Below are positions 20,753-53,848 of a DNA stretch of 64,000 bases, piece after piece. The number at the start of each line of letters is the position of its first letter. Within the stretch, counting starts at the first letter, position 1. The position numbers were made by a program, and so were the translations under genes. The notes beneath the pieces are model-generated. The model was given only the letters and a program-made list of their open reading frames with translations. It was not told the origin of the DNA and did no database searches. Source of the DNA: Gemmatimonadaceae bacterium (GTDB lineage: Bacteria > Gemmatimonadota > Gemmatimonadetes > Gemmatimonadales > Gemmatimonadaceae); NCBI GenBank assembly GCA_040901985.1, contig JBBDYC010000009.1, forward strand, positions 248,644 through 312,643, written 5' to 3'.

Positions 20753-22021
20753 ATGGCCATCGCCCGAATCACCAAGCGAACCGTCGATGCCACGGAGGCA
20801 TCGACTACGGACGTCTTTCTTTGGGACTCTGAGCTTCGAGGATTTGGCCTCAAAGTCACCCCACGAGGTCTGAAGAAATACGTCATCCAGTATCGACTTC
20901 CTGGACTGGGACGCCGGGGCACCCCCAAGCGGGTAGTTCTCGGCACGCACGGCACGCTGACGCCGGAAGAGGCCCGCCAGCTCGCCAAACGTTCGCTGAG
21001 CGCCGTGGCCCAGGGTTCTGATCCAGCTGGAGAACGGGCTGCCCGTCGGGGCACAAAGACGGTCCAAGAACTATGGACGGACTATCTCGATTTCTCGAGA
21101 CCGCGGCTCAAGCCTCGAACAATGAAGGAGTACCAGCGCCTTTTCGCCAGGCACGTCGCGCCAGCGCTTGGCTCAAAGCTGACACCGGAGATTCAGCCGC
21201 TGGACTTGCGCCGTCTCCATCGGGCAATGCACAAGACGCCGATTGCCGCGAACCGCGTGGTTGCAATGCTCGGGGCGTTCTTCACGTTTGCGTGGAAAGA
21301 GGGTGTCCTGCCACCGAAGGAGAACCCAGCGCATACGGTCGAGTTCTATCCGGAGTCGCATCGCGAGCGCTTCCTCTCGCGGGACGAGTTCACACGGCTT
21401 GGCAAGGCGCTGACCCAAGCCGAGACCGTGGGACTGCCGCCCGCACCTCAGCTGCGGCGGAAGAGCGAGAATGACAAGCATCGCCCGAAGAGTGCCAACA
21501 CGCCGATTCCAGCCAACCCGTTCGCAGTTGCGGCGATTCGTTTGCTCGCGCTGACGGGATGCCGCGAGAATGAAATCCTGTCACTTCGGTGGGATGCCGT
21601 GGATTTCGACCGGGGGTACCTCCGTCTAGCCGACTCAAAAACAGGCAGGAGTGTGCGACCGCTCGGCCGAAGCGCCGTATCGCTCCTTGAGCGTTTGCCG
21701 CGAATCTCTGGAAATCCGTACGTGCTCCCTGGCCAACAGCGCAACAAGCACCTCAAGGAGATCAAGAGACTGTGGTACGCCGTGCTCCATGCTTCGAAGT
21801 TGCCGGGACTTCGCCTGCACGATCTGCGGCACTCATTCGCCTCCGTTCCGGCGACCAGCGGCGAGTCGCTGTTGGTGGTGCGCTCACTTCTTGGACACAA
21901 GAATGTTGCAACGACTGAGCGCTACGCACATCTGGCTGACGACCCCGTCAAGCGAGCGGCTGATCGGGCTTCGAGCGACATCGCCGGTTGGCTGAGCCAA
22001 GCCCCGACCACTGATTCCTAG
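20753..22021 (+). CDS. Tyrosine integrase with N-terminal arm-binding (DUF4102-like) domain
   Basis: WDSELRGFGLKV N-terminus; catalytic TGCR.NE, K, HDLRHS, LGH, RYAH. Confidence 0.95.
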   Translation: MAIARITKRTVDATEASTTDVFLWDSELRGFGLKVTPRGLKKYVIQYRLPGLGRRGTPKRVVLGTHGTLTPEEARQLAKRSLSAVAQGSDPAGERAARRGTKTVQELWTDYLDFSRPRLKPRTMKEYQRLFARHVAPALGSKLTPEIQPLDLRRLHRAMHKTPIAANRVVAMLGAFFTFAWKEGVLPPKENPAHTVEFYPESHRERFLSRDEFTRLGKALTQAETVGLPPAPQLRRKSENDKHRPKSANTPIPANPFAVAAIRLLALTGCRENEILSLRWDAVDFDRGYLRLADSKTGRSVRPLGRSAVSLLERLPRISGNPYVLPGQQRNKHLKEIKRLWYAVLHASKLPGLRLHDLRHSFASVPATSGESLLVVRSLLGHKNVATTERYAHLADDPVKRAADRASSDIAGWLSQAPTTDS

Positions 22022-23485: not shown

Positions 23486-23501
23486 TGTAATCCTCACGTT
23501 C

Positions 23502-23762
23502 GAATATCTTCAATTCAGCTTGACGCCACACGTCTCGCACTATGCTCGGCCTTCCTTTGACACCTCGGATTGCTGCGTCCTCGAGGTCCAGCTGTACCTA
23601 GGTAAAGTCATGCCAGCCCACGTGGGTAACGACGTCCACGACCACCTTTGAATATCTTCAATTCAGATTGACGCCACGCGTCTCGCATTATGCTCGGTCT
23701 TCCTTTGACACCTCGGCGTGCTGCGTCCTCGAGGTCCAGCTGTACCTCCGTAAAGTCATGCC
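23502..23762. repeat. 113-bp imperfect direct duplication (23502-23614, 23650-23762) of the HD gene 3' end
   Basis: Gap-free hand alignment, 8 mismatches. Confidence 0.92.
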
Positions 23763-26151
23763 GACCTAAGTGGGAAACGATGTCCATCAACTCGTCGTTC
23801 CCGATCTTCGCAAGATCGATCTTTGCGAGCTTAAGCACCTCTCGGAACGAATCCATTTGCTCGCCGGAAAGCCCCGCCAAGTCCATGCACTCCTGCAAGT
23901 TGGCCGTTTCGCCGAACCGATACCGAATGTCGCGGCAGTTCTCATCACTATCGATGTGAATCAGTTCGTCAAAATTGACCCCGGTCGGTCTATCGGCAGC
24001 GGCGTCAAAAGGGCTGGATAGACACACTTGCCAGAGCTTCTTGAGATCATCATCCGAGATGACCGATTCTAGATCGAGTCTAGATACATTCGTTGAGACA
24101 TTGGACATTTGGAACCAATGCCATGCGCTCTTGATCACTCGGATCAGAAAGCTCTCGGCCAGTCGAAGATGTTCCAAATGCGCCTGCTCATCTGAGCGGC
24201 ACTTGTGTCCATCGAGCATGCTGGCGAGACCGCCAGTGTAGAATAGGCCGTCACTTCCGAACACGTAGATCTTCCACATCGCTGCGTACTGTGATTCCGC
24301 ATTCACGAGCCCAGAACGCAGTCTTTCGAGGACAGAGGCAGGAACCGCTTCAGCACTCGAGGCGCTATCTGTCACCAGTTCATCGATACGCCCTACCGCC
24401 TCGTTAGCCCTAACGACGATCCCTGGATCCTTGTAGAGTTGCTTGTATGGAGTGGTCCACAGGATCACTCGGCGCGGCAGCACGTCTCTCATCCACTTTG
24501 GGTCGGGAGGAGTCAAAGTACCATCGACGAACTGTTCGAGTTCCTGCATCGATTCAAACGAATGATCAAGCAGGCGCTCAACTAGCCAGCACGCTGTGCA
24601 AAGAAACGGCGCAAAGTACTGGGAATCTAGAATCGCCCCGAGTCGCCTGAGCCATTCTTCCCGCTCCTCGATGGGGGAGTTTGCTGCATCAGCTCCCTTC
24701 AATAGCGCGAACGCTTGATCTCCCGAAAGTATCATAAGCGGTCGGTAGATGCGCCGCTCAATCAGCTTACGGGCCAGGCGGCTATGCGGTGTGCCGAGGT
24801 GACCGTCGCGAGGTAGGTCCGCCAACTGCTGCAAGAAGAGATCGTCGCCCTGCAGCGCATGAAGAGAGGATCCGACTTGATAGAGCTGTGCAATGGTTGG
24901 CCTTTCGTCACCAGCTAAGGCAATCGCTCGAGCGAGCATCGCGATTGCACCCTGCACTACGCGGTGAAATACCGCTTTCTCATGAATCTCATGGCGAAAA
25001 TCAACCATGCGAAACACATCGTTGATTCGTTCGGACCGAATTACGCCACGCTTATAGTCGTTGAGATCAATCGCGCACTGTGCGAGACGTTCTGGCTTCC
25101 ACCCCGATGGACCACCCAAGGCGAGAACTCGAGACTGCGGCACAGCGACGAGTGTGTAGACGTCGAGCAGCTTGGGATCTATGGACTTCTGCATGCCCAA
25201 CCGTCGCGCATCCCGATGCAGATAGTCGAGCAAATCCGCACTAAGCGTATCCCCGACGATGTCGTGCCTGTACGGTTGATACCAAGCCCGGTGCAGTTTC
25301 TCGTGCATCGCAGCAGGGCCTAGCCCCCATTTAATCTTTTCCCTCTTCTCCGTATCAAAACTGGTAACGAGGTTGATCGTCGGACCCCGGAGAGCATCCT
25401 TGACAGATTCAAACACCAATAGATGAAACAGGAGCGATGGAAGAATTCGCTTACCTCTATCTCGTTCAGGCCATTCTTGGCACGCTTCGACGAAGAGACG
25501 CAGATGAGCTCCCTCATCTTTGGCGGCATCCTCCACAAGCAGTCGCCAAAACGCCGACGAGTGTTCGGCTAGGACTCTCGCAAGGATCGAGTCTGCACGA
25601 TCGAAGAGGAGGACGTAGAGCGCTGGATTCTCTTCGAAATCGTCATGCTTCTCATAGGGTCCATAGTAGGACTTAACCTTCGTAGCCCGGTCGTTGTACC
25701 GATGAGTCTTCTTCTCTATGTCGTGCGAGAACGGAGCGTGCGGGATGTCATGCAGAAGCCCCGCGAGCGAGATAAGAAAGCGCTCAGCTCGCGTAATCGT
25801 GGGGAGCGGTTGATTCGGCCTTCCGACAGCTTTGCGTTGCGCGGAGATCCTTGGCGTGTTCTCGTTCAGGTGGTCGACGAGTTCCTTCGCCTTAGCACAC
25901 GCACCAATGCTGTGGATGCCTCGAGAGTGGTTCGCCGTGTGATAGACGAGATCAACGAGCCCAAGCTGGGCTACCCGAAACAGTCGCTGAAACTCCGGTG
26001 TGTCAATACAGTCACTTTCGATTCGATTGAGACGCACGCCTCCCCACAAATCGTCGAGAAACTCCTCCCTATCATCAAAAAGCGAACTTGCCTCATGGGT
26101 CACTTCGAACTCCCGGAGCGGTGTCCGCCTGTTTTTTTTCACTACCTGCAA
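23608..26151 (-). CDS. Large HD-superfamily phosphohydrolase (SAMHD1/dGTPase-like) with long C-terminal extension
   Basis: IDTPEFQRL...QLG..DLVY..ANHSRGIHSIG, LLHDIPHAPFSH, ADLLDYLHRD; start uncertain. Confidence 0.85.
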   Translation of the reverse strand: MQVVKKNRRTPLREFEVTHEASSLFDDREEFLDDLWGGVRLNRIESDCIDTPEFQRLFRVAQLGLVDLVYHTANHSRGIHSIGACAKAKELVDHLNENTPRISAQRKAVGRPNQPLPTITRAERFLISLAGLLHDIPHAPFSHDIEKKTHRYNDRATKVKSYYGPYEKHDDFEENPALYVLLFDRADSILARVLAEHSSAFWRLLVEDAAKDEGAHLRLFVEACQEWPERDRGKRILPSLLFHLLVFESVKDALRGPTINLVTSFDTEKREKIKWGLGPAAMHEKLHRAWYQPYRHDIVGDTLSADLLDYLHRDARRLGMQKSIDPKLLDVYTLVAVPQSRVLALGGPSGWKPERLAQCAIDLNDYKRGVIRSERINDVFRMVDFRHEIHEKAVFHRVVQGAIAMLARAIALAGDERPTIAQLYQVGSSLHALQGDDLFLQQLADLPRDGHLGTPHSRLARKLIERRIYRPLMILSGDQAFALLKGADAANSPIEEREEWLRRLGAILDSQYFAPFLCTACWLVERLLDHSFESMQELEQFVDGTLTPPDPKWMRDVLPRRVILWTTPYKQLYKDPGIVVRANEAVGRIDELVTDSASSAEAVPASVLERLRSGLVNAESQYAAMWKIYVFGSDGLFYTGGLASMLDGHKCRSDEQAHLEHLRLAESFLIRVIKSAWHWFQMSNVSTNVSRLDLESVISDDDLKKLWQVCLSSPFDAAADRPTGVNFDELIHIDSDENCRDIRYRFGETANLQECMDLAGLSGEQMDSFREVLKLAKIDLAKIGNDELMDIVSHLGRHDFTEVQLDLEDAARRGVKGRPSIMRDAWRQSELKIFKGGRGRRYPRGLA

Positions 26152-26740: not shown

Positions 26741-27223
26741 TCAATTCGTAGGTACGCCTAGAACGACGAGGGCCAACGCTGCAGCATCAAATAGGTTCAT
26801 TCGAGTGTCTTCCGCCTGCCAGAGCGCCCTAACACGTGGACGCCGCCGACGCAATTCGGGAAATCGGTTGGCAATCGCGGCCGCGATTGCCGCCTTCGTG
26901 ACTTCGCCAAAGAAGGCACGTACGATCGTTCGGGACACCTGGCAAAGACCCATCTGCCGGTCCGCCACAAATTGAATCGCAAGAGCCTGCCTCCGCAGTG
27001 CCGCCGGTCGCTGACTGGGCGCATACAGATTCTCAAGTGCCAAGACTGAAGGCCTGCCGCGCTCAATGTGAGTCGAGAGTCGAGCTACGAACGCCGCATC
27101 ACCCTGCTTCCCGAACGTGCTGAAGCCGTGGTCAAGTAGGCCCCATTTCGCGTCGATCAAGGCATAGCCAAATCCCTTGGCTGACAGATCGATCGCGAGA
27201 ACTCGTAGCGTTCTTTTTTTCAT
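26741..27223 (-). CDS. RuvC/RNase H-like fold protein
   Basis: VLAIDLSAKGFGYA, LALE, TKAAIA, NLFDAAALAL match the D..E..D pattern. Confidence 0.65.
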   Translation of the reverse strand: MKKRTLRVLAIDLSAKGFGYALIDAKWGLLDHGFSTFGKQGDAAFVARLSTHIERGRPSVLALENLYAPSQRPAALRRQALAIQFVADRQMGLCQVSRTIVRAFFGEVTKAAIAAAIANRFPELRRRRPRVRALWQAEDTRMNLFDAAALALVVLGVPTN

Positions 27224-27573
27224 TCAGTTGCTTCACCAATACATCTCCTGATAATCCGCTTAAGGGACTCGCACTTCTCTGCTCGTGCGGGATCCTTGGC
27301 CCGATGCACCATACTCTTGAGAAGTTTCTGTGCCCTCAGGCGCACCCGGCCTGCCACCAGCGCACATTCATCTTCGTGGATCTCTTCGACGCCCGCGCCG
27401 AAGATGACTGCGTATGCGAGGGCAACTTCGAGGGGCGGCGCGCACACACCGGTTTCGTGTCGCGAGACGCGCGTTCCGGTGAGGGCGCCAAGGAGGAAGG
27501 CCACGTCGTCTTGCGAAAGCGCGGTGCGACGGCGCAAGGCCTTGAGGAATGGAACGGGGGTTCTTTTCTTCAT
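27220..27573 (-). CDS. XRE-family HTH regulator
   Basis: LRRRTALSQDDVAFLLG...VSRHETG; ATGA overlap with the RuvC-like gene. Confidence 0.8.
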   Translation of the reverse strand: MKKRTPVPFLKALRRRTALSQDDVAFLLGALTGTRVSRHETGVCAPPLEVALAYAVIFGAGVEEIHEDECALVAGRVRLRAQKLLKSMVHRAKDPARAEKCESLKRIIRRCIGEATE

Positions 27574-27662: not shown

Positions 27663-27691
27663 GTGGACGTGGGGACTTCGGGGACTTCGGG
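27663..27691 (-). repeat. GTCCCCGAA-type motif, inverted copy
   Basis: Minus strand CCCGAAGTCCCCGAAGTCCCCACGTCCAC; 21/23 match to 31054-31076. Confidence 0.85.
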
Positions 27692-27716: not shown

Positions 27717-29015
27717 CTATGATTGTTCGTCTAGATTGGTGCCGTAGCGCTGGAAAAGCGCCTGGAGTCTCCCTTCTTCATTGATGTGGATGACGAACGA
27801 CCCGTTGCTCTTGACCGCACGCAAACCCAATCGCGTCCGGAGCTGATGGCCAACCCAGCGAGGCGTCACGGGACGCCCAAAGTCAAAACCAAAGCGAACA
27901 CCGAATCGACTCGCGATTTCTTTTATGCCAAGCGGTACGGACTCCCGCCGCATCTCTGCTATGATATCAAGAAGTTGCGCCTCCACGCCCACCCCTCTCT
28001 CAGCCTTCAAAGCCCAACTCGTCGTTTCGGCGAGTCGATGCAACCGCTCACGCGCTTCGTCATCAACCGCCACGGCTAGAAGCGGCGCAAATACTTGAGC
28101 CACTCGCGCCTCTATGTGTGGCGCTCGCGCCACTACTGCCGGGCCGAACTCGTGCCGGCGTCGCACACGGTACATCAGGAGCTGATTCTGGAGCGCGATA
28201 GCACCTTCGTGAAATGCCTCTGGTAAGCTGAGCGGAATGTCGTCGCGTGGAGGCAGTCCGACCATTTCTTCCGTGATGCAGCGGCTCTCGAGCGCCCGAT
28301 CCTCGAACGATCGCCGCGTGGCAATCACCTTCGGCCCGTAGACGGCGAACGCTCTCGGATTGAACTCCTTTCCTGGAGTCGCCTCACTCCGTAGCACCGG
28401 AAAGCCCTTGGCGTTTCCGTTGTTGAGAATCTTCACAATCTCAGCCCGCTCATCGGACAATCGAAAGTCGCTTTCGTCCATGATCAGCGTGCCGCGAAAC
28501 TCATCAATGATCCGAAAGAGCGGCGATACGGTCGATGCCCCACTCGCAAACATCGGCTTGTAGCAGAGGGCTCCGATGGTCTGAAGGCATCTCGTCTTGC
28601 CGCTACCGAAGTCTCCCTTGAGCCTCAGGTACGGCAGCTCATTGAACGCATCGTAGATCCAAGTGAGAAGGACGTAGTGCGCCGCAGCTTCTTCAAAAGC
28701 GGGCGACAGATCCGCATATCGATGAATGAACTGACTGACCGCCTCTATCAGAGACATTTCCGACTCATAGTCGGCCACACCCGATGGGAACTTCACTACT
28801 CCGTGGGCAATCAAGTTGTTATCGGCCGAGTACGCACGCACCTGACCGAGTTGTGGCAGATCTAGGATACAGCCCTGCTCGACATGTCCGTGCCCTAGAC
28901 GCACCAGTTCAACATCGCCCGCTGGGTATGCAGCTAGCGTTTCGACAATGCTGCCGTCGTCGAGAACTGCTGACACCAGCGTGCGTACTTTTGGCTTCTG
29001 AGTTTCGTGTGCCAT
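27717..29015 (-). CDS. P-loop NTPase, replication/primase-associated (DUF3631-like) with wHTH-like C-terminus
   Basis: Walker A GDFGSGKT, Walker B LIMDE, ILNNG, ALESRC. Confidence 0.6.
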   Translation of the reverse strand: MAHETQKPKVRTLVSAVLDDGSIVETLAAYPAGDVELVRLGHGHVEQGCILDLPQLGQVRAYSADNNLIAHGVVKFPSGVADYESEMSLIEAVSQFIHRYADLSPAFEEAAAHYVLLTWIYDAFNELPYLRLKGDFGSGKTRCLQTIGALCYKPMFASGASTVSPLFRIIDEFRGTLIMDESDFRLSDERAEIVKILNNGNAKGFPVLRSEATPGKEFNPRAFAVYGPKVIATRRSFEDRALESRCITEEMVGLPPRDDIPLSLPEAFHEGAIALQNQLLMYRVRRRHEFGPAVVARAPHIEARVAQVFAPLLAVAVDDEARERLHRLAETTSWALKAERGVGVEAQLLDIIAEMRRESVPLGIKEIASRFGVRFGFDFGRPVTPRWVGHQLRTRLGLRAVKSNGSFVIHINEEGRLQALFQRYGTNLDEQS

Positions 29016-29381: not shown

Positions 29382-30998
29382 ATGAACTTCTTCATCTACT
29401 GCCGCAAGTCAACCGATTCCGAAGATCGGCAGGTCCTGTCGATTGAATCGCAGCGCAACGAGGCACACAAAGTCGCGGGTACTGTGCCAGGCGCCGTTGT
29501 GGTGGAGATCCTCGAGGAATCCAAGAGCGCAAAACGGCCTGGGCGCTTGGTGTTCGATGCGATGCTTGACCGCATTGAGAGCAGAGAGGCGGACGGGATC
29601 ATCTGCTGGCATCCTGATCGCCTCGCACGCAATGCGGTGGATGGCGGGCGCATCATACATATGCTGGATACCGGAGTACTAAAAGACCTCCGATTCTCGA
29701 CCGGCCAATTCGAGAACAACCCACAGGGCAAGCTCATGCTTTCCATGCTCTTCGGGTTCTCGAAATACTATGTGGACAGCTTGGCGGAGAACGTCAAGCG
29801 CGGGAACCGGGCCAAGGTAGGCAAAGGGTGGAGGCCTACCACGCCACCGTTGGGATATCTGACGGACCCAGTGACAAAGACGATCGTAGCCGATCCGTCG
29901 CGCTTCGACGCGATTCAAGCGCTCTTCCAGATGATGCTAACGGGCACGAGCTCGCCCCGGCAACTTCTTGACGCCGCCAATAGTAAGTGGGCCCTCAGGA
30001 CCCGTCCGCGCCCACGCGGAGGAAATGCCCCGCTCCACCTCAGCGCCGTCTATGCGATGCTAAAGAACCCGTTCTACGCAGGAGTCTTCGCATGGGAAGG
30101 GCGAATGCATGCTGGGAAACACCAGCCCATGATCTCGCTCGCGGAGTTCGAAAGAATCCGGGAGCTGCTGGGTCGACCACACCGCCCGCGTCCGATTCGG
30201 CGAACGTTTCCGTATACCGGCATCATCCGGTGCGGAGCATGCGGTCTTGCCGTTACCGCTGAGGCCAAGATAAACAGACACGGGCATCATTACACGTATT
30301 ACCACTGCACGCGACGCAAGCGTGGTTCATTCTGTCGTGAGCGGTGCGTTACGGAGCAACTGATAGAACACGAGGTGCTGGCGTTGCTCGACAACATCCG
30401 CATTTCGAAGGCAAGTGCCGGATGGATTGAAGACCATTTGCCGCAGATGGATGACACCGATGGGGCAGCCCGCGACGCACGTCAAGCTTCATTGTCCTCC
30501 GCGATTGACACCCTCGACCGCGAGATCAGTACCCTGACCGGCTTGCGCATCCGAGAGATTGTAGACGACCAGGAGTTTTTCAGGGAACGCGAGGCGCTTA
30601 CTGGCCGCCGGCTAGCGCTGGTACAAGAGGTCACGGCGCTCGCGGTGCCCACGGACTGGATCGAACCCCTCAGAGTCCTCATTTCGTTCAGCGATAGAGC
30701 CGCAGAACTGTTCCGCGATGGCGACGCGACCATTCGACGCCTAATAGTCGAAACCGTATGTTCGAACCTCGTCCTGCAGAACAGAAAACTGAGCGTTGAA
30801 GCCACGAAACCGTTCCTCAGAACGGGCTCGGCGGCCTCCAGTTCAGAACTGCGGGCAGTGATGAAGGACGTTCGAACCCTTTTGCACGATCACGACGACG
30901 TCTTTACAGACATCATATCAAATATCACACGGATATTCTCTCTAACCAAAAAGGCACCGCCAAGGGACGAAACCCAGGGCAGTGCCTTTTCCTCGTGA
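29382..30998 (+). CDS. Large serine recombinase (resolvase + recombinase + Zn ribbon)
   Basis: IYCRKS, SIESQ, DRLARN, PLGY, NPFYAG, CGACG, YYHC. Confidence 0.95.
   Translation: MNFFIYCRKSTDSEDRQVLSIESQRNEAHKVAGTVPGAVVVEILEESKSAKRPGRLVFDAMLDRIESREADGIICWHPDRLARNAVDGGRIIHMLDTGVLKDLRFSTGQFENNPQGKLMLSMLFGFSKYYVDSLAENVKRGNRAKVGKGWRPTTPPLGYLTDPVTKTIVADPSRFDAIQALFQMMLTGTSSPRQLLDAANSKWALRTRPRPRGGNAPLHLSAVYAMLKNPFYAGVFAWEGRMHAGKHQPMISLAEFERIRELLGRPHRPRPIRRTFPYTGIIRCGACGLAVTAEAKINRHGHHYTYYHCTRRKRGSFCRERCVTEQLIEHEVLALLDNIRISKASAGWIEDHLPQMDDTDGAARDARQASLSSAIDTLDREISTLTGLRIREIVDDQEFFREREALTGRRLALVQEVTALAVPTDWIEPLRVLISFSDRAAELFRDGDATIRRLIVETVCSNLVLQNRKLSVEATKPFLRTGSAASSSELRAVMKDVRTLLHDHDDVFTDIISNITRIFSLTKKAPPRDETQGSAFSS
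30948..30986 (-). terminator. Intrinsic terminator-like hairpin on the minus strand inside the repeat
   Basis: GGCACUGCC-16nt-GGCGGUGCC-UUUUU (9-bp stem, one GU pair). Confidence 0.65.
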
Positions 30999-31008
30999 TT
31001 CATTCTCT

Positions 31009-31036
31009 ATTATAGAAATCCTTGAATCTCTGTCAA
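31009..31036 (-). promoter_or_regulatory. Consensus sigma70 promoter, antisense to the recombinase 3' end
   Basis: TTGACA-16nt-TATAAT; copy 2 has TTGACA-16nt-TATCAT (33411-33438). Confidence 0.8.
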
Positions 31037-31089
31037 TCGACTCTCTTACCAATGTCCCCGAAGTCCCCATGTCTACCCCGAATTACTGT

Positions 31090-31302
31090 CTAGGTCGTGT
31101 GGCATGGGTTGCAGCAGTAGTAACAACCATTAGTGTCTGAGAAGTGCGTCCTAGCCACCTTCATCGCGTCTCCACATGAGCTGAACGATCCAAGGTATAT
31201 GGCATTACTCGAGTCAGGAAAGTACGAGCATCCAGATACGTGAACTTCGTGATCGTAAGAACCTGGCTGAGCATTTTTGTTTACGTAGTAGCTTTTATTC
31301 AT
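31090..31302 (-). CDS. Small His/Cys-rich putative Zn-binding protein
   Basis: YYVNKNAQ...DHEVH..GC...GCYYCC..CH. Confidence 0.75.
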   Translation of the reverse strand: MNKSYYVNKNAQPGSYDHEVHVSGCSYFPDSSNAIYLGSFSSCGDAMKVARTHFSDTNGCYYCCNPCHTT

Positions 31303-31324
31303 TTTTTGTTTCGTTAGATGTTAA

Positions 31325-31675
31325 TCACTCACATCCCCACCCATCACGGTCTCGATCAAGATCGAAGACATCTGGACCAGTAACCCTTACGGTACCTGTG
31401 TAGTTCGGTCCGTTTCCAGATCCACCAGCACAATCATAATCGCCAGCATTCACCTTTAAGCAACCAGAGTAGCTAGAGTGGCAACTTGATCGTTCTGGTG
31501 CTGAAGCAGCCTTCTGAATCGGCTGAATATTCTGGGCATTCTGCACAGGTATGGGTACATACAAGCTTGTATCAGTACTCTCGGGTTCTGAAGAGCCCAT
31601 CGCCATTAGCCCCACAAGAGCACCGCTCGCCAGGATGATTTTGGTGGTAGGAGTCATGTTCTTTACCGCTATCAT
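31325..31675 (-). CDS. Exported protein with excalibur-like Ca-binding C-terminus
   Basis: Hydrophobic N-terminus; DYDCAGGSGNGP...DLDRDRDGWGCE. Confidence 0.75.
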   Translation of the reverse strand: MIAVKNMTPTTKIILASGALVGLMAMGSSEPESTDTSLYVPIPVQNAQNIQPIQKAASAPERSSCHSSYSGCLKVNAGDYDCAGGSGNGPNYTGTVRVTGPDVFDLDRDRDGWGCE

Positions 31676-31736
31676 ATACCTATCACTCAGCTAAGCAAAC
31701 ACGATCTGTCCTTGGCTCAATACAAAGGACTAGATA

Positions 31737-31758
31737 TCCCCGAAGTCCCCATGTCTAC
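31737..31758 (+). repeat. Isolated 22-bp motif TCCCCGAAGTCCCCATGTCTAC
   Basis: Identical to 31055-31076 and 33457-33478. Confidence 0.92.
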
Positions 31759-31781
31759 TGGCCTGCCTCCCCAGGGCCTAT

Positions 31782-32597
31782 TTATGCGCTCGATTCGAAG
31801 ACATTAAACTTCTTTGAATACGAATAGATCGAACGAAAACCCGTATCCTTTGTGTGCTGGTCCAAATGATTTAAGAAGTGCTTATCGAAGAGTTTGGTGA
31901 AGGCGTTGTCTACGCCAGTTTGCTCCTGTTCAAGCTTCTTGCGGATCAAATACGTGACACAGTCCGCAAACTGCATCGCATCAAAACACTCTGCAGATAA
32001 GAATGAGAACCGTACCGTAAGCTGGTTCGTGCCTGGCTTCTTCTCCGCAATCCTAGCAATCTGCCTCGTGATTTGATCTTTATACACAGCTTCCAAGTTG
32101 TTCAACCTATCCAAAGTAGTGCGCATCCCAATCCTACCAGACCTTACCGTGTGTGCTCGCCTCCCCTCAAACATCACAGTTAGTGTCGACACATCCTTAA
32201 ACATCGTGTTAAGTGTGTACCCACTACCCTTCATCTTGTTGGCTAGCGCAAACACACTCTGCTTCGCGAAGTAGTGTTCGTAAGTCTCGCTAGTTGGAAT
32301 AAATGAGTCATTCCTCCTGTATAGAAAGGAGTGAAAGTAGACTTTCTCCGTACTGTGAAATGCAGCGAGCCAGCGATCCATCAATGCAAGTTGCCGAGAG
32401 TCTGTCTCACTTATTTCGCTACCATGTAGCGTCACCCAACATTCCGGGGCTACTTTCCTAGCTTGCTTGAGCGCATTCAGAAACTCAAACTCTCCCTTAT
32501 CGGAATCGGTTATCAGATAACCAACTAAAGTATGGTTTCGATCGTTGATGCCAATTTCAGTTGATTCGTCAACCCAGATCGTGATTGCCTTTTCCAT
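31782..32597 (-). CDS. DUF3800-like protein
   Basis: N-terminal IWVDES, LH..E, C-terminal MQFAD. Confidence 0.6.
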   Translation of the reverse strand: MEKAITIWVDESTEIGINDRNHTLVGYLITDSDKGEFEFLNALKQARKVAPECWVTLHGSEISETDSRQLALMDRWLAAFHSTEKVYFHSFLYRRNDSFIPTSETYEHYFAKQSVFALANKMKGSGYTLNTMFKDVSTLTVMFEGRRAHTVRSGRIGMRTTLDRLNNLEAVYKDQITRQIARIAEKKPGTNQLTVRFSFLSAECFDAMQFADCVTYLIRKKLEQEQTGVDNAFTKLFDKHFLNHLDQHTKDTGFRSIYSYSKKFNVFESSA

Positions 32598-32606
32598 CTG
32601 GCATCA

Positions 32607-32843
32607 CTAACCCTTCGGCGGATGAGGGTCACTCCCGTATGTATTTCTCTCGCGAATACGACCATCCCTCGAATGGATAAACAGTTCTGATTCGTTGTTC
32701 TTTGCAACCTTGGTTGCGAATCGGATGGCCTGATCCTGACGATCAAACACTTTCGTATCCTTGTCTGCTCCCGCTTTCTTTACAGCCCAGCCATCCGAAC
32801 GAGGCAATACATGCTGATTGTTACTATTGCGCACCTTTGTCAT
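32607..32843 (-). CDS. DUF2188 family protein
   Basis: QHVLPR.DGWAVK.AG...Q..AI..A...SELFIH.RDGRIRERNTYG.DP.PPKG; TGGTATAAT 6 nt upstream. Confidence 0.88.
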   Translation of the reverse strand: MTKVRNSNNQHVLPRSDGWAVKKAGADKDTKVFDRQDQAIRFATKVAKNNESELFIHSRDGRIRERNTYGSDPHPPKG

Positions 32844-32915
32844 GTCGACATTATACCACACTCACTATCTATTCAGGTTGCACACTTATTCAGTACCGCA
32901 TCCTGTACCTGCCCC

Positions 32916-32940
32916 TCACGCAAATAACACCCTCATCACA
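32916..32940 (+). repeat. 25-bp motif TCACGCAAATAACACCCTCATCACA, copy 1
   Basis: Identical to 35490-35514. Confidence 0.92.
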
Positions 32941-33251
32941 CTAGGGTCTCGATCGTTCAGAATGGAATCGGGCGCCCAATTAGTAGCTAATCAGCAGTAA
33001 CATGGATTTGAACATGTTTGGTCGTCGAGAGCGTCCTATACCAGAGGACGCCAAAAAGACTCTCAATGAAATCCTTGAGTTGGTAGAGAGCGATGTCGAG
33101 TTCCTTCGCGAAAGCGTTCGAGCTCTAGGCAGAGAGCTTGTATATCACCTCAAGGGAGAGGCTTCAGACATATAGGTGGTACGAACAGCGGTATTTCCAT
33201 ATCCAACGTCGAAGATTCGAATTCTCTACCTCACCAATAGCACACTTTGCT

Positions 33252-33479
33252 TGCGGGCAGTGGTGAAGGACGTTCGAACCCTTTTGCGTGATCACGACGA
33301 CGTCTTTACAGACATCATATCAAAGATCAAACAGATATTCTCTCTAATCAGAAAGGCACCGCCAAGGGACGAAACCCAAGGCAGTGCCGTCTTATCGTGA
33401 TTCGTTCTCTATGATAGAGATCTACGAATCGCTGTCAATCAGCTCTCTTACCAATGTCCCCGAAGTCCCCATGTCTACC
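33252..33479 (+). repeat. 228-bp direct repeat copy 2 (alternative recombinase C-terminus + promoter + 22-bp motif)
   Basis: Encodes LRAVVKDVRT...QGSAVLS* with the stop at the same offset as in copy 1. Confidence 0.95.
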
Positions 33480-33491
33480 AAGTAGGTGTTG

Positions 33492-35411
33492 TTAAAGAGG
33501 CCGATTGAACTGGGCAGATGGCACGTGCGGTGCCATATCAGCCAAGAACTGACTGGCTTGCAGATACGCAATACCACGGAACCGGCGTGCCGGAGATATT
33601 CGTTGAACGTGAGTACTGGCTGATTCCATCGTCTGCGAGTACGAAAGGGCGAGATATCCCTGGCGGCCTTCTTCAGGCCTCGCCTTCACGCGTGTAATCC
33701 CAACATAGAACAACCTGCGATCCTCTTCGAGTGTCGCAGCCTTCTCAGCATCAGACGCTTCCTTCGACGGCGACGACGGTAGAAGCCCTTCCACACATCC
33801 CGCGATAAAGACGAAAGGGGCGCTCAGACCCTTGCTCTTATGGAGGCTCATAATCCTGACTTCATTCACACTAGGCGGAACTTCGGGTCGGTCCATACTC
33901 TCCTGCAGCGCCTCGTAAAGTTCTTCCGGAGTCGAGCACTCTTCCTTGTGCTCTGCGACTGCTTCAGCAAGTAACTTCGTTTCAGCGCTCGATGGAAGCC
34001 ACCGATCCAGAAACAGAGTCAGATCTGTGGTCGCGCTGAGAGCCGCGAGCTCCGTTGCAATCATCTCAAACTTTCTGACAATCTGGGTGGTGCGTGGAAT
34101 CGCGAGACCGCCGCCAGCGAGTCGCTCTAAGATCTCCCGCGGCGCCTCGCCAGTCCCTGATGCATATGCCATGATGCGCCCGTATTGTTCTGCGTGCCAC
34201 TTAGCATGGCCGCGACCCAATAACCATCTTAAGGCTACTCGGTCTTGCTTGTTGACCAAGAGTTTTAGCAGAGAGTAGCGCTCCTGCGCCTCAACAGTAT
34301 CAAGAGCAGATTCTGCATAGTACGATTTAACGGGAACATTCCTCGTCTGGATTGCATCGAACAGTGTACGTGCGAGACCTTCGCGCTGGGCAAGCACCAT
34401 AATCTCACCTGGCGACACGCCACTCGACACAACTCGTTCAATCTTTTCGGCAACTGCTGCCGCCTCGCTCTCAACCGTACGGTACTGCCGGACCACGACT
34501 TCTCCTGGGCCATTCTCTTCGATCTCTTGCATCGCGCGAGCCGGGACTCTCCCCGGATTCTTCGCAATGAGAGCGTTAGCCATTCGGACGACAGTCGTCG
34601 GACACCGGCGACAATCGTCTATGCCAAAATCCACTCCCGAATGGCTGGTGCTCCATTCGCGAATACCTTGAGGATGAGCGTGCTTGAAACTGTAGATGGA
34701 TTGGTCGTCGTCACCGATCACGCAAAGTGAACTTGCTTCCCCCAACAAATACAGCGTGTCCTGCTCCGCTCGATTCAAATCCTGGTACTCATCAACGAGG
34801 ACGTGAGAAAACTCTCGAAGCTCGTCCGCGCTGGGATTCGACTTCAGAAACTTGTACAAATGCGGGATAATCTCCTCGAGGAGCATAGCTCGATGAAAAC
34901 GCAGCCACGAAATCAGATCATCTTGAAACCTCTGTTCTTCTGCTGTCCGAGTGAATCCTGGGTCATCCGCCTGAAGTCGGGCCCAGGCTGCTCCATAAGC
35001 GCTCATCAGCTTGCGACGAGCGTGGATGGTGCCATGTTGCGACCCGAGGTCGTACATCAGCGGCGTAAGTTCAAACTTGCTCAATGCTCTTGGATGTCGC
35101 CCCAGAGCAGACAAGACATGATTTCTCATTAAAATCGACATCGCAAGACTGTGGACGGTTCGTCCATGAAGCCCGACAACCCCGAGCTTTGCCAAATCAC
35201 GGTGAAGGTCATCGGCCGCTACGCGAGTAAAAGTCACGGCCAGGACTTTTGCCGGCGCAACTTTCTCAACCTCGAGAAGTCGAGCGACTCGACGGTTCAT
35301 TGCGAACGATTTCCCGGTGCCCGGGCCAGCCAGCACACGAATTCGATTGCTCGTCGATGCCGCGACTTCGTATGCGGGAGTTCCCGCGACTAGTTCATCG
35401 TTCCATGCCAT
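33492..35411 (-). CDS. UvrD/Rep SF1 helicase (GajB-like size)
   Basis: AGPGTGKS, VDEYQD, IGDDDQSIY, SLHKSKGL, EDRRLFYVGITR. Confidence 0.92.
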   Translation of the reverse strand: MAWNDELVAGTPAYEVAASTSNRIRVLAGPGTGKSFAMNRRVARLLEVEKVAPAKVLAVTFTRVAADDLHRDLAKLGVVGLHGRTVHSLAMSILMRNHVLSALGRHPRALSKFELTPLMYDLGSQHGTIHARRKLMSAYGAAWARLQADDPGFTRTAEEQRFQDDLISWLRFHRAMLLEEIIPHLYKFLKSNPSADELREFSHVLVDEYQDLNRAEQDTLYLLGEASSLCVIGDDDQSIYSFKHAHPQGIREWSTSHSGVDFGIDDCRRCPTTVVRMANALIAKNPGRVPARAMQEIEENGPGEVVVRQYRTVESEAAAVAEKIERVVSSGVSPGEIMVLAQREGLARTLFDAIQTRNVPVKSYYAESALDTVEAQERYSLLKLLVNKQDRVALRWLLGRGHAKWHAEQYGRIMAYASGTGEAPREILERLAGGGLAIPRTTQIVRKFEMIATELAALSATTDLTLFLDRWLPSSAETKLLAEAVAEHKEECSTPEELYEALQESMDRPEVPPSVNEVRIMSLHKSKGLSAPFVFIAGCVEGLLPSSPSKEASDAEKAATLEEDRRLFYVGITRVKARPEEGRQGYLALSYSQTMESASTHVQRISPARRFRGIAYLQASQFLADMAPHVPSAQFNRPL

Positions 35412-35489
35412 GGCCTTACGCTATCGCAATTCCTCGCTTAATGGAACACGCAACGCCCACGGCTTCCCCACCCGCTCCCTTAGCGCGCA

Positions 35490-35514
35490 TCACGCAAATA
35501 ACACCCTCATCACA
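35490..35514 (+). repeat. 25-bp motif copy 2
   Basis: Identical to 32916-32940. Confidence 0.92.
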
Positions 35515-35572: not shown

Positions 35573-38215
35573 CTACAGACCGTACTTTTTCCTCTTGAGC
35601 TCGTAGGACTTGTATCCGCCCTCCAGATGATCGACAACATCGTCCTTGATTGCCTGCTCATCGATTGAGCCGGAACGGGCGACCCATCCCTTTCTTCCAT
35701 CCGCCTCAAAGACAATGAACTGATCTGAATCAGATGAGACCGAGATACTGGAGTTATGAGTGGTGAACACAAACTGCCGCACATGCTTGCTGATACGCAA
35801 TCGTGAGCATATGTTTGCCCAGATAGATGGGATATCCAATGCATCTTCCGGCTGATCGATGACGACCGGCATGGCTCCGTCACCAAGCGCGATCATGATC
35901 AGCGCGTCGGCCTTTTGACCCATGGATAGCTCGGACAATGGATAGTATTGGCCGTCCCGCTTCTGATACGCAATTTCGATCCGGTCCTCTGGATATCCAT
36001 CGTACTGCATAGACATTGTCTTCAGCCGCACTCCAGTCTCATTGAGCGCAGTTACAATAGCTTCCGCTTTCTGTTCAGATATATCGGCGCGCTTCGCCAA
36101 TGCCTTAGCGTTTCGATCCAGGACCATCCGCACGAATTCTACTGGCGTCACCTGACTGACGATTCTGTCGATCTCCTTCTTCTCAGCGTACGATCCAACC
36201 GCGAGGTCCTTCAACAGACCCGTGTATGCGCTCCTGTTGTCGCCGGCCTGCACCGCAATTCTGAGCTTACCTCCCGCCTTGGTTGTTATCAGTTCGGCTT
36301 GCTTGGAACGTTCTGTGAAATAGCGCGTCTTGGTTTCGCCGAGAGTGGCGAGTAGAGTCTCACGTTCAGCGCGGAACTTGCCGTCCTGTTTTGCGGCCTT
36401 CTCGGCCTGGGTGATTCTTGCAACTAGCCCCTTCTTCTCGTCTAGTAATGACCGACGCTTAGTCTCCAAACCTTCTTCCCTCTTCTTCAGTGTGACCGTT
36501 GCAACGTACTCTTTCTCCAACTGTTGATACTTGTTCCTCTTGTCCCACCCACGCAGAGCAATACGCGCTTGCTCATGTGCCTTCTCTACATCCTTCCGAG
36601 TCGCCTTAAGTCCACCTAGAGCGACAGAGTAGCTGGCTCGCAAACTGGTATCGATGGCGCCAATCGTATCAGCTTGAACCTTGCCAGTGGGTGCGTTTTC
36701 CTTGAAAGCTTCAATAGCGTCGTCGATCAATTCCAGCAGAGGATCAAACTCTTCTATCTTCTCCTCAATCGCCGTGCGCTCAGCTGACAATGCCAAGTAC
36801 GGTTTTGACGCCTTGCTCTTGTCTGCGATGCCAATCTGCTTGGATAGCTTCTCGAGTGCCACCTCAGTGTTCTGCAACTGCTTCTTGAGAACCTCGCAGT
36901 TAGCCGAATCCTCAATCGCCTGGTGCAGCTTCTGGTCGAGACGCCCAAGATTCTGACGGATCTCCGTCACTTGGTTCTGGTATGTGTCGAGATCCTGGAA
37001 GTTGTCGAGCAGGCCAAGTTGAGCGTGCTCATCACGCGTTATCTCTAAGATCTCGTTCTGGCTATAGATTAGAAGGGGCACCAGTGACGAGAGGTCGCCG
37101 CTGAACGCCTTCCCCGAGTCGATGTTGACGCAGGACACGGCCGAGGAATAAGGATCACGTGGGTTCTCGTACTTGCGGCAGATCTTATACCGCGTACCCG
37201 AACCGTCGCGATAAATCACAGTCACTTCCCCGTGAATCCGCAATTGCTTCTGCAGCTTCTGCTTGTGATCAGACATCAGCACTTCGGGGGGCTTGCGGTC
37301 AAACACAAATCGCAGGAGTTCAATCGTTAGAGACTTTCCCGTTCCCGTACCGCCGATGATGCTGTTCATCCCGTGATGAAAAGGGATGGTCTGCCGATCT
37401 AGGAACCCGCCACGTATCTCGAGTTGTTCGATTCGCGGGTGTGCCGATGCGATTTTCTCTAGTTCGTAGTCTTGGATAATTCGGCTATCTCGATCCTCGA
37501 AGCACTCGCGCAACGACTCTAGAGTGAGAGCCCCCATGCGAAAGTAGGTGAAATGGCTGCCAATCGTCTCTAGGCAATGGCCTGTCTTGCCGACAATAGG
37601 GTTGTCCGATGCCTTGTATACAGCGAGCTTGCGAAGATATACCGGGTCCTCGCCGTCCAGAACATCAATGAGGCGCTTTTTCCCAGTGACCCCGTCGAAG
37701 TCCCCAGAGGTCGCCTCGACTGCACTGAGATTCTTGTTCTTGACGAGTGCCGCGCGTGGATTGCCCCTGATATCTGAAAGGGCACCATGTGTGGAATTCG
37801 CATGTGCTAGGACAGCAAGACCACCAGCCTGATTGATAATGTCAATCACATCTGCCGGACTCTTCTGTGTCAGCGCATCGCGACCTGCACCGGAGACATC
37901 GAGCTTTCCAAGCACCCTCTGAAGGTCATCTTTGTCGACTCGTGGATCAAAGAGGGCAATGACATGAATGGACCCACTCTGCGTTGCTCCACACGACACT
38001 TCAACGCCAGGGAAGATGGTAAAGCCCTTCGCCTTTGCCGCAGTCTTCATCTTGTCTATGAAGTCAACGGTATTGTGATCCGTCACAGCGATTGCGCTAA
38101 GGCCGATCTCCTGACAGCGTGCGACGATATCGCCTGCGCTCACCGTCTTGTCGAGAAAGTCGTGGGATGCCGGTGTGTGGACGTGGAGATCGAGCTTGTG
38201 GAGTTGTAGTGACAT
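35573..38215 (-). CDS. PHP phosphoesterase + SMC-like ABC ATPase (Ppl/TrlF-like defence protein)
   Basis: DLHVHTPAS, AVTDHN, GVE, AH, ASD; GGTGTGKS, coiled coil, LSMGQ, IDQPED, TTHN. Confidence 0.85.
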   Translation of the reverse strand: MSLQLHKLDLHVHTPASHDFLDKTVSAGDIVARCQEIGLSAIAVTDHNTVDFIDKMKTAAKAKGFTIFPGVEVSCGATQSGSIHVIALFDPRVDKDDLQRVLGKLDVSGAGRDALTQKSPADVIDIINQAGGLAVLAHANSTHGALSDIRGNPRAALVKNKNLSAVEATSGDFDGVTGKKRLIDVLDGEDPVYLRKLAVYKASDNPIVGKTGHCLETIGSHFTYFRMGALTLESLRECFEDRDSRIIQDYELEKIASAHPRIEQLEIRGGFLDRQTIPFHHGMNSIIGGTGTGKSLTIELLRFVFDRKPPEVLMSDHKQKLQKQLRIHGEVTVIYRDGSGTRYKICRKYENPRDPYSSAVSCVNIDSGKAFSGDLSSLVPLLIYSQNEILEITRDEHAQLGLLDNFQDLDTYQNQVTEIRQNLGRLDQKLHQAIEDSANCEVLKKQLQNTEVALEKLSKQIGIADKSKASKPYLALSAERTAIEEKIEEFDPLLELIDDAIEAFKENAPTGKVQADTIGAIDTSLRASYSVALGGLKATRKDVEKAHEQARIALRGWDKRNKYQQLEKEYVATVTLKKREEGLETKRRSLLDEKKGLVARITQAEKAAKQDGKFRAERETLLATLGETKTRYFTERSKQAELITTKAGGKLRIAVQAGDNRSAYTGLLKDLAVGSYAEKKEIDRIVSQVTPVEFVRMVLDRNAKALAKRADISEQKAEAIVTALNETGVRLKTMSMQYDGYPEDRIEIAYQKRDGQYYPLSELSMGQKADALIMIALGDGAMPVVIDQPEDALDIPSIWANICSRLRISKHVRQFVFTTHNSSISVSSDSDQFIVFEADGRKGWVARSGSIDEQAIKDDVVDHLEGGYKSYELKRKKYGL

Positions 38216-38804
38216 GGCAGGTGAGTTTGAGAGCCTGATAATAGCACAGCCCTACGAATCTGCGCTGCCAGTGCCAAGAAGGAGTCGAGGAGCCTCACGG
38301 CCTCCAACTCAGCAGACGTACCACCGCAGGGCACAGCACGCATCACCGCGCTTCGTTGAGGCGCCAGTTCTGAGTCAGTACTGGCCTCGGTCTTGAGCTG
38401 AGAGCACTCAGGCTCCCTGCCGTTCAAGTGCGCAATCTCCCGTGCTAGAGCTTCACGTTGAGCGCGCGCCTGACTCCGGTCCAGGGACTTAGCACCTTGG
38501 GTTCAGCGCGGCGTCTTGGCGCTAGGAGTAACTTCGGTATATATTCGGTTGCCGTCCGTCCCGGCTCTGCGGAGCAGCTCGGCGCCTTGGCTAAGCAGGA
38601 GAGGACCTGCAGAAGGCGTTTTTGCTTCGACGAACGAGGTTGACAGGTGACCTGGATTCACCTCGCTCGGATCAGCACTTGTTCTCGTCTTGGATTCACA
38701 AATCGTGCCGGAGCAGGAGCGCTATCGCGACGTTTTCCGCGGCGAATCTCGTGATATCATTGGGCCAGCAGCATCGCCAATCTTATGCTAACAGAAATGA
38801 CCTC

Positions 38805-40556
38805 ATGAAGAATGGAACACTAAAGATCACGACTCAACAGCCACAGTCGCTCCTCGCACGAGGCTCGACCACAAGCGGTCGCTTCTCTCAACTTGATGCC
38901 ACAAAACTGAGAGGTGGCTACTACACTCCGACCGCACTGGCCGACTGGCTCTGCGCTTGGGCTATTCGGTCAAAGAATGACCTAGTACTCGAACCAAGTT
39001 GCGGCGATGGCGCTTTTCTCGAAGCCGCCTCTAAGAAACTGCGCGCCCTAGGTTCGCGCGATTCGGTGCGAGCAGGGCGCCTTCTCGGTGTTGAGGTCAT
39101 TCCCGCCGAAGCTACCAAGGCTACTGCCCGGCTACGAGTCTCGCTTGGAGCGAGTGCAGCCGGAGTGGTCGCCACAGACGACTTTTTCGCTTGGTGGAAA
39201 CGGCCAGATCGACCGCTCGTTGATGCGGTTGTCGGGAATCCACCGTTCATCCGATATCAGAGTTTCCCGGAACCAAGCCGCAACCGAGCGATGTCCATCA
39301 TGCAGGAACTCGGACTCCGGCCCAACCGCTTGACAAATATTTGGGTTCCCTTCGTCGTAGCGGCGGCCGCGAGCCTGCGTCCTGGGGGCCGTATGGCGCT
39401 CGTGATTCCAGCTGAGTTGCTCCAAGTGTCCTACGCATCACAGCTGCGTTCGTTTCTCACGAATCGCTTTGGGCGCATTGACCTCATCACCTGCAATGAA
39501 CTCTTCTTCGAGAACGCTGAGCAGGAGGTACTTCTGCTATTGGCGGACGATGCGAAGGCGCGCCCTTCGAAAGACAATGTTTGTCGCATGACGCTCACGG
39601 AGACGAGAACTGTCGCTGATCTTGTGAGCCGTAGGCCAAGCGATGTCCTCAGAGGTGCAGAGTCCAAGAGCGTTCACCATGCCTCCGAAAAGTGGCTTAA
39701 GTTCTTCCTAACAGGGGCCGAAATCGACTTCATGCGTAGGCTAAGAGCGTCTAGCCGAACGAATACACTGGCGGCGTTCGCCTCGGTCGATGTCGGTGTG
39801 GTCACCGGCAAGAATAAGTTCTTCGTCCTCAATGAGGATGCGATCAATGAGCACAACCTGAGTAAGTACACAGTGCCACTGGTGTCTCGATCATCACATC
39901 TGGCTGGCGCGAAGATCGGCAGGAAAGAATGGCAACAACTCGCCTCGGCTGGCGACCTTGTTCATTTGTTGCACCTCGCACCACGAAACGGAGGAAAATT
40001 GCCGCTTCCGTTGAGTGCGTATATCAAGGCCGGTGAGGATGACCAACTTCACATGGGATACAAGTGCTCCATTAGGAAGCCGTGGTACGCGGTGCCCTCG
40101 GTGTGGGTTCCTGACGCGTTCATGTTTAGGCAGATATATGACTTCCCTCGCGTGGTCCTAAACGGCGCTGACGCCACATCGACCGACACGATCCACCGCA
40201 TGAATTGCAAAGTCAAACCCGCACTTCTTCTCGCCAATCTTTACACGCACCTAACGGCAGCGTCGGCGGAAATCGAAGGACGCAGCTACGGTGGAGGCGT
40301 GCTAGAGCTCGAACCAACCGAAGCTGAGCGGTTGCTCGTCCCGATGGAACTTGGCGCCGCTCTGCCACTGAGCGAGTGCGATCGACTCGTCCGTGCTGGT
40401 CGACTCGACGAGATTCTTCTGGAAAACGATCGGCGCGTCCTTATGGATCAAATGGGACTTTCCCGGTCCGACTGTAGGATGCTTCGGCGCATATGGGAAA
40501 AGATGCGCGATCGTCGATTGGCCCGCAGACGGACCGGACGTCCGTCAACAGCATGA
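38805..40556 (+). CDS. N6-adenine DNA methyltransferase (companion MTase of a Type IIG system)
   Basis: GGYYTP, LEPSCGDGAF, VVGNPPF; start uncertain. Confidence 0.9.
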   Translation: MKNGTLKITTQQPQSLLARGSTTSGRFSQLDATKLRGGYYTPTALADWLCAWAIRSKNDLVLEPSCGDGAFLEAASKKLRALGSRDSVRAGRLLGVEVIPAEATKATARLRVSLGASAAGVVATDDFFAWWKRPDRPLVDAVVGNPPFIRYQSFPEPSRNRAMSIMQELGLRPNRLTNIWVPFVVAAAASLRPGGRMALVIPAELLQVSYASQLRSFLTNRFGRIDLITCNELFFENAEQEVLLLLADDAKARPSKDNVCRMTLTETRTVADLVSRRPSDVLRGAESKSVHHASEKWLKFFLTGAEIDFMRRLRASSRTNTLAAFASVDVGVVTGKNKFFVLNEDAINEHNLSKYTVPLVSRSSHLAGAKIGRKEWQQLASAGDLVHLLHLAPRNGGKLPLPLSAYIKAGEDDQLHMGYKCSIRKPWYAVPSVWVPDAFMFRQIYDFPRVVLNGADATSTDTIHRMNCKVKPALLLANLYTHLTAASAEIEGRSYGGGVLELEPTEAERLLVPMELGAALPLSECDRLVRAGRLDEILLENDRRVLMDQMGLSRSDCRMLRRIWEKMRDRRLARRRTGRPSTA

Positions 40557-52056: not shown

Positions 52057-52070
52057 CCGGGAGCCGACCA

Positions 52071-53828: not shown

Positions 53829-53848
53829 GCGACGGGTAGAGGTCCACT

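Follow-up and report, generated by a model that had tools for sequence, protein, structure and literature searches.

A recombinase-less gene unit between two copies of the 3' end of a large serine recombinase gene in a Gemmatimonadaceae island

Features of the recombinase locus

The window analysed here is a 64,000-nt (64-kb) stretch of DNA from a Gemmatimonadaceae bacterium (contig JBBDYC010000009.1, positions 248,644 to 312,643, GenBank assembly GCA_040901985.1). It carries a gene for a large serine recombinase whose attachment (att) site lies within its own 3' end, and a 228-bp segment that begins inside this gene recurs farther downstream. The two copies (30850-31077 and 33252-33479) align without gaps and are identical at 206 of 228 positions, and their 100-base flanks match at only 26% and 30%. 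This bears out an initial annotation, made from the letters alone, which had described an ungapped repeat of about 90% identity with unrelated cargo after each copy. From the start of copy 1 to the start of copy 2 runs unit 1 (30850-33251, 2402 bp), holding four minus-strand genes of 70, 116, 271 and 84 aa at 45-50% GC (guanine plus cytosine), with a UvrD gene after copy 2, also as first described. The initial annotation had passed over two further copies of a motif that we call M, a promoter and hairpin on the reverse strand, a 57-aa open reading frame (ORF) with the adjoining arm X, and the island in which the locus is set. In the feature lists, G233 is a second genome of the same family and L numbers are loci used for comparison.

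27663-27687, + strand: motif M in inverted orientation, immediately downstream of the rep-like gene; found at the equivalent position in G233, L052 and L054
29198-29380, + strand: conserved 60-aa protein upstream of the recombinase; 54% identical in G233, 31% in L095
29382-30998, + strand: large serine recombinase, 538 aa, att site within its own 3' end
30850-31077, + strand: 228-bp repeat copy 1, with att right arm, T-loop-like motif at +23, tail ORF, hairpin, reverse promoter and motif M
30948-31036, - strand: short transcription unit on the reverse strand, with a 12/12 promoter (TTGACA-16-TATAAT) and an RNA of ~60 nt that closes with a hairpin and U tract
31052-31076, + strand: motif M, three GGAC-type repeats 9 nt apart; cargo changes 1-4 nt beyond
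31090-31675, - strand: cargo block a, comprising a gene of 70 aa (phrog_4298) and one of 116 aa with a weak match to Excalibur (E 0.024)
31734-31758, + strand: further direct copy of motif M (24/25), the third, not preceded by an att arm and dividing unit 1 in two
31782-32861, - strand: cargo block b, comprising a DUF3800-like gene of 271 aa and an 84-aa DUF2188 gene (candidate PDC-S16 in PADLOC)
32916-32940: 25-bp motif copy 1, exact duplicate of 35490-35514
33002-33251, + strand: unit 1 right end, with the orphan 57-aa ORF, an in-frame stop and the 75-bp arm X abutting copy 2
33252-33479, + strand: 228-bp repeat copy 2, promoter 11/12, motif M at 33454-33478
33492-35411, - strand: UvrD/GajB-like helicase, co-inherited with the backbone
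35490-35514: second copy of the 25-bp motif, flanked by UvrD on one side and the PHP-ATPase gene on the other; G233 lacks it at this position

Three families of exact-24-mer repeats, and no more, occur in the 42-kb island around this locus: the 228-bp repeat, the 25-bp motif and a 144-bp repeat (23495/23643). Neither of the first two matches elsewhere in the genome. GC content is 47% in unit 1, 58% in the recombinase gene and about 69% in the host. No integrase or transfer gene was found in unit 1 among its ORFs or by family scans, and recombinase profiles match its tail only.

The recombinase has the Resolvase, Recombinase and zinc-ribbon domains that mark a large serine integrase, and the genome holds only one other Recombinase-domain match. 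It scores 71 bits against a Ccr cut-off of 900, and CcrA, CcrB and CcrC all lie far below their cut-offs. Homologues are rare: the recombinase is present in 3 of 401 genomes of the phylum and, at a stricter cut-off, in 2 of 401 genomes of the class, its own genome being counted each time. In a viral collection neither the recombinase nor the Rep-like protein had a locus; an alignment-based search of that collection gave 8 loci, none with a duplicated tail, and among plasmids the recombinase found nothing at 1e-40. By its position, the 60-aa protein encoded upstream is a candidate directionality factor.

The copies of the repeat differ at 22 sites and share perfect runs of 35 and 37 bp. At both joints the right arm is intact, with 1-2 changes only in the first 35 bp. 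Differences in the tail comprise 12 non-synonymous and 2 synonymous changes, so no protein constraint on it is evident, and the residues at the differing sites divide both ways as to which copy is native. The hairpin within the repeat is strong in both copies (folding z -4.5 and -4.1), and copy 2 has the equivalent promoter and hairpin module at 33350-33438 on the minus strand. No hairpin spans the crossover itself: folding z was -0.82 and -0.17 across the two joints. The repeat's hairpin belongs to no Rfam family, with nothing at the gathering score, and its pattern is absent from the viral collection. Of 401 Candidate Phyla Radiation (CPR) phylum genomes, two have sequence similar to this hairpin (L058 and L059), located after NYN and PD-(D/E)XK nuclease genes; the 169 genomes at E<=0.5 in this search were noise apart from those two. 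G233 lacks the hairpin, and its crossover-to-M distance is 136, against 205 here. The ~60-nt reverse RNA might act in the manner of a small RNA antitoxin. An association of DUF3800 genes with structured RNAs has been described (PMC5737381), which offers a lead for this RNA.

A sibling island carries the tail once

The initial annotation read the locus as an array in which the 228-bp repeat, a cargo and the 25-bp motif occur twice over, with UvrD as the second cargo. G233 does not bear this out. It has the same backbone: integrase (61% identical), RuvC-like (55%), helix-turn-helix (HTH; 61%), rep-like (69%), the small 60-aa gene (54%), recombinase (61%), UvrD (60%) and coupling-protein-like genes (75% and 58%). 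In that island a single recombinase tail and a single motif M are present, and UvrD follows directly. Because UvrD stands after a single tail in G233, and has diverged about as far as the recombinase (60% against 61%), we conclude that it was co-inherited with the backbone and is not a second cassette. It follows from the shared backbone that the window consists of that backbone plus one 2402-bp insert without a recombinase. No duplicated tail occurs in the other close loci (G233, L055 and L056 are single in the available DNA), most of whose flanks are short.

Unit 1 begins at the crossover register of the recombinase family

We compared 38 related genome loci, mostly from CPR bacteria. In 28 of them a tRNA or transfer-messenger RNA (tmRNA) begins at the end of the recombinase gene, on the opposite strand. 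A TTCGAAC-like T-loop motif lies at +18 in these tRNA joints and at +23 in joints of the 'DVRT'-type tail, as well as in both copies in the window. The offset between +18 and +23 equals the 5-bp shift between attB (B-type) and attP (P-type) half-sites that is the rule for large serine integrases (PMC11722253). The T-loop-aligned set has 29 rows; one of these, like one row of the recombinase profile, comes from the unpublished genome G096, on which no claim depends.

Closer homologues number 83, of which 71 end in the tail (66 in exact register) and 2 in a tRNA-like peptide; the other 10 end otherwise or are cut. One of them, P0006 (64% identical), parts from the others at the very EL codon with which the repeat opens and, judged by its peptide, may read into a tRNA. 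We therefore take the tail to be the ordinary attP right arm of the clade and the repeat to start where the enzyme cuts. By this comparison, the left boundary of unit 1 lies at the crossover register of the family. The family thus appears, from sequence comparison, to insert at the 3' ends of tRNA genes with attP inside its own reading frame. The attP would have the coding sequence as its left arm and the 'DVRT' tail as its right arm, with motif M beyond it. By eye, left arms show no mirrored motif and vary widely. Long perfect inverted repeats bracket the recombinase near its 3' end in four relatives, all integrated at tRNAs (L018, 130 bp; L026, 141 bp; L032, 159 bp; L041, 87 bp).

Stacked elements occur in the same set. 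L006 and L009 (2/38) each hold two complete elements in tandem, the first recombinase running into the tail and the second into the tRNA. L038 (1/38) has a joint of left arm and tail 3.5 kb upstream of its own recombinase, with a score of 24.7 where shuffled sets gave 0.33 matches each at a threshold of 8, and no recombinase profile matched upstream of the joint. Matches away from the gene end in L013 (11.6) and L018 (8.4) were set aside as near noise. Both tandem accretion and recombinase-less joints therefore occur in this family. For the clade of the 83 closer homologues (P0003-P0085), most of them in the tail state, the usual condition may be carriage in an island that a different integrase anchors, or a circular form.

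A survey of listings and the openings of abstracts, few of them from subscription papers, brought up no account of serine recombinases that target tRNAs and carry attP within their own reading frame; large recombinase catalogues may already list the family.

Motif M and the 25-bp motif

Motif M occurs in 2 of 301 genomes of the family, the window's own included. It was absent from five genomes behind tRNA-type loci and from the viral collection. A metagenome scan found it at six loci: two beside rep, two behind a recombinase and two behind a tail whose available upstream sequence (1.1 and 4.2 kb) contains no recombinase. None of the six has a duplicated tail, their flanks being short. At one of the comparison loci, L053, the joint carries a terminator-like hairpin, which would suit the point where an integrated element ends on its far side. 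The tails of G233 and L055 are much alike, and their cargo diverges 4 nt after M; the genes that follow M differ among G233, L053, L055 and L056. Cargo behind the repeat is thus variable within the family, which supports that part of the first reading. Inverted copies of M bracket the core of rep, 60-aa gene and recombinase and mark the point at which cargo switches; M may be an origin element bound by Rep.

The 25-bp motif is duplicated exactly (32916-32940 and 35490-35514), as the initial annotation had it. No other fetched locus contains it (834 kb, up to 6 mismatches), nor does the viral collection. Likenesses to dif and CRP sites, compared by eye with the consensus sequences, were dropped.

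The right end and origin of unit 1

Unit 1 ends in sequence for which we found little kin. Searches with the 57-aa ORF recovered nothing beyond the ORF itself and a pair of low-complexity repeat proteins, and the 74-aa peptide that joins X to the tail found no homologue. Arm X is a possible cut-off recombinase arm. A T-loop-like motif lies in it at -71, which by eye is within the range of the relatives (-58 to -74). Searched as DNA against the 401 CPR-phylum genomes, unit 1 gave three short matches, two to the hairpin and one chance-like; a plasmid search gave one 47-bp match to DUF2188. GC content and the hairpin match suggest that the cargo may have come from CPR bacteria.

Origin of the arrangement

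About three quarters of the weight, in our judgement, falls on a joint made by the recombinase and bounding one recombinase-less unit. The cassette reading of the initial annotation stands to this extent: unit 1 has no recombinase and its joint lies at the recombinase's own att site. Its second unit, and with it the array, does not. As to the route, we regard as on balance probable an accretion in tandem at a tRNA, followed by co-excision and carriage by a tyrosine-integrase island. We favour this path because it needs only reactions seen in relatives. Unit 1 would be a recombinase-less unit like a cis-mobilizable element (CIME) whose far end derives from a close sibling of the resident element, the 228-bp repeat (right arm plus M) being the far end of such an element. 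It would have lain at a tRNA when the resident element inserted on the tRNA side, forming the joint of X and copy 2. The recombinase would then have excised both together, joining its own gene to copy 1, and the composite would have been inserted by a tyrosine integrase, with the serine att sites left inside the island. Unit 1 would thus be a passenger moved in cis, and homologous recombination of the two repeat copies could delete it; by the usual rules for integrases, copy 1 and copy 2 would not be expected to form a productive pair. We infer both the order of these events and any present activity.

Several observations weigh against this account. Among the homologues, 71 of 83 are in the tail (unintegrated) state, unlike the CPR relatives, and the clade may seldom use tRNAs. 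Arm X scores at background with a left-arm matrix, 73-83% of null positions being as high, with the matrix built from CPR arms and failing on the window's own recombinase arm as well. Protein profiles, insensitive for this clade, found nothing in arm X, and its motif at -71 has a background of about 5%. Accretion by itself does not account for the 90% identity of the copies, the third copy of M or the exact duplication of the 25-bp motif, and the arrangement is known from one locus only.

An active loading dock, the central idea of the initial annotation, is a doubtful alternative with some real chance of being right. The intact att site in the island would take up recombinase-free circles, and unit 1 would have entered as a 2402-bp circle and could leave again; as part of this, the enzyme would read mainly the right, T-loop-like half and tolerate any left arm. 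The variable, unmirrored left arms seen by eye, the intact right arm at both joints (1-2 changes in the first 35 bp) and the recombinase-less joint of L038 would suit it. It requires recombination of the attP x attP type, however, a reaction that is normally disfavoured by serine integrases. The insertion is a single case, since G233, L055 and L056 are single-tailed in the available DNA, and the depth of unit 1 (29.3) is near that of its flanks (26.6 and 26.2), with no excision joint listed. With a like degree of doubt, one might picture a standing att dock in the enzyme's own gene, in an island anchored by another integrase, that loads and unloads recombinase-free, self-promoted defence cassettes. 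An equally doubtful extension has low-GC donors, possibly CPR, a C-terminus rewritten each time and M as a second, Rep-dependent cargo boundary. If true, the dock would be an integron-like system on serine chemistry that moves genes between phyla.

Homologous recombination or tandem duplication of siblings, then replacement of cargo between M and the 25-bp motif and neutral decay, would leave no cassette logic now. Such a history is favoured by the extent of the shared sequence (228 bp at 90%, including perfect stretches of 35 and 37 bp), by the second shared patch in the 25-bp motif, by divergence that looks neutral and by the orphan sequence at the right end of unit 1. We nonetheless think it unlikely: a random breakpoint would seldom hit the crossover codon on which the left edge falls, and a plain duplicate would put the recombinase arm to the left of copy 2, where the match is only 26%. 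It is also conceivable, and quite improbable, that M is itself a point of cargo exchange, with the Rep-like protein acting at M and blocks added at the outer edge. In two independent pairs identity does stop 1-4 nt beyond M, unit 1 is itself divided by a lone M, and different genes follow M in G233, L053, L055 and L056. Against this, the duplicated att arm and the left edge go unexplained, conserved sequence may simply end at M, and the left M copy borders conserved genes.

An assembly artefact joining two strains or a free circle seems very remote. The assembly graph is ambiguous at two perfect shared runs. Five unitigs of the probable source run nevertheless tile the locus at depths of 26.6, 23.2, 29.3, 34.8 and 26.2, and those pieces show no alternative letters, while 22 sites tell the copies apart; the run is possibly the sample of origin and so is not independent. 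The depths fit a single integrated copy. No excision joint was listed among the contigs of three runs of one study, a kind of data that could miss such a joint. Short matches on one X3 contig to M, rep, recombinase and UvrD were too short to count.

The host island

The serine-recombinase locus lies inside a ~42-kb tyrosine-integrase island with identical 45-bp tRNA-end fragments at both ends (20547 and 62997). These ends are 3' halves of tRNAs only, of two tRNA-Pro types, and no whole tRNA lies in the 64-kb window; read off the sequence, the left fragment would be tRNA-Pro(GGG). A tRNA-Pro(GGG) call by ARAGORN on C3 looks spurious. The G233 island is likewise bounded on both sides by partial tRNA-Pro fragments. 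The tyrosine integrase stands at the island end, 9 kb from the serine recombinase. Further features of the island are as follows.

20547-20591, - strand: left island end, 45-bp tRNA 3'-half fragment, tRNA-Pro-like, identical to 62997-63041
20753-22021, + strand: island tyrosine integrase, 61% identical to its G233 counterpart
26741-27573, - strand: RuvC-like (160 aa) and HTH (117 aa) genes, conserved backbone
27717-29015, - strand: Rep-like P-loop protein, DUF3631-related by predicted structure; 69% identical in G233
35573-43621: variable defence cargo, TrlF/Ppl-like PHP-ATPase, methyltransferase and type IIG restriction-modification system
49920-56938, + strand: two coupling-protein-like ATPases and a 163-aa gene, backbone common with G233
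62825-63041, - strand: right island end, tRNA-Pro(CGG)-type fragment (62825-62869) and second 45-bp repeat (62997-63041)

The Rep-like protein may act in replication. Among the window ORFs scanned, Pfam found no relaxase, despite the two coupling-protein-like ATPases (49920-56938). At the position of the 35573-43621 cargo, G233 has helicases and an Eco57I-type methylase instead. Defence-type genes of the island comprise the UvrD/GajB-like helicase, the TrlF/Ppl-like ATPase, methyltransferases, the type IIG system and DarTG; the DarT/DarG-like pair is at 57580-59485. The island also holds a cluster of HTH, IrrE-like peptidase and HNH genes (45364-47275) and a second DUF3800 gene (48721-49935). 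The 144-bp tandem repeat (23495-23638 and 23643-23786, 89%) overlaps the 3' end of an 847-aa HD-domain gene, and a CapP-like peptidase gene adjoins it.

Comparison with known systems

The locus holds one recombinase-less unit inserted once and is not a proven integron-like array; from a single locus, a new system would not be established. It would offer a plausible route by which low-GC accessory or defence genes without a recombinase pass from a tRNA array to a larger island and so into a 69% GC host. It also offers substrates for work on tRNA-targeting serine recombinases, namely one att site that is intact, a second copy that varies from it and a tRNA predicted as target, and an enzyme that depends mostly on a universal T-loop half-site would interest integrase mechanists and genome engineers.

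Integrons combine the tyrosine recombinase IntI, attC-type hairpins and gene units free of a recombinase. The last of these, lying beside a recombinase gene, is what the window has in common with them. In detail the integron-like logic of the initial annotation falls away: there is no IntI, the adjacent enzyme being a serine recombinase, folding showed no hairpin at the crossover, there is one unit only, and its cargo is transcribed toward the recombinase.

The composite islands of the staphylococcal cassette chromosome (SCC/SCCmec) and ECC, with CcrAB as recombinase (PMC6222049), are also cassettes of a serine recombinase in which successive att sites enclose cargo that varies. Here the enzyme is not Ccr and is single, and the target is a tRNA or tmRNA in 28 of 38 relatives rather than rlmH. 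Phage-type large serine integrases (LI/A118, SPbeta; PMC11722253) have the same domain order and the 5-bp shift of the outer motif; in the window the outer motif mimics a tRNA T-loop, the left arm has no mirror motif and recombination swaps the C-terminus.

Accretion has been proposed for a serine recombinase in the ssrA islands of Dehalococcoides (PMC3146451). There DsiB, a serine recombinase of ~540 aa, is linked to islands that stand in tandem at a tRNA-like gene, and 15 of the 31 islands lack an integration module, much as in the window. The module here is different (rep-like gene, 60-aa gene and motif M), the joint is the 228-bp end of an element and not a 20-bp ssrA repeat, and the targets are others. 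Tycheposons (10.1101/2020.12.28.424599) also target tRNAs and leave stacked material behind; 474 of 501 use tyrosine recombinases, whereas here the stacking enzyme is a serine recombinase.

The locus also resembles the tandem accretion of integrative conjugative and mobilizable elements (ICE and IME) in the ICESt1/ICESt3 family, for which accretion, CIMEs and the transfer of CIME-ICE tandems have been described (PMC5704250). A CIME is a unit without integrase or transfer genes that lies between att sites and can be moved in cis. Unit 1 likewise lacks such genes, its left boundary falls, by comparison, at an att site, and arm X is a candidate for its own left-type arm at the right boundary; it may have been movable in cis, and an adjacent element with the cognate recombinase is present at 29382-30998. 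The window differs from those systems in having a large serine recombinase with attP in its own frame and a tandem that sits away from a tRNA, inside a tyrosine-integrase island.

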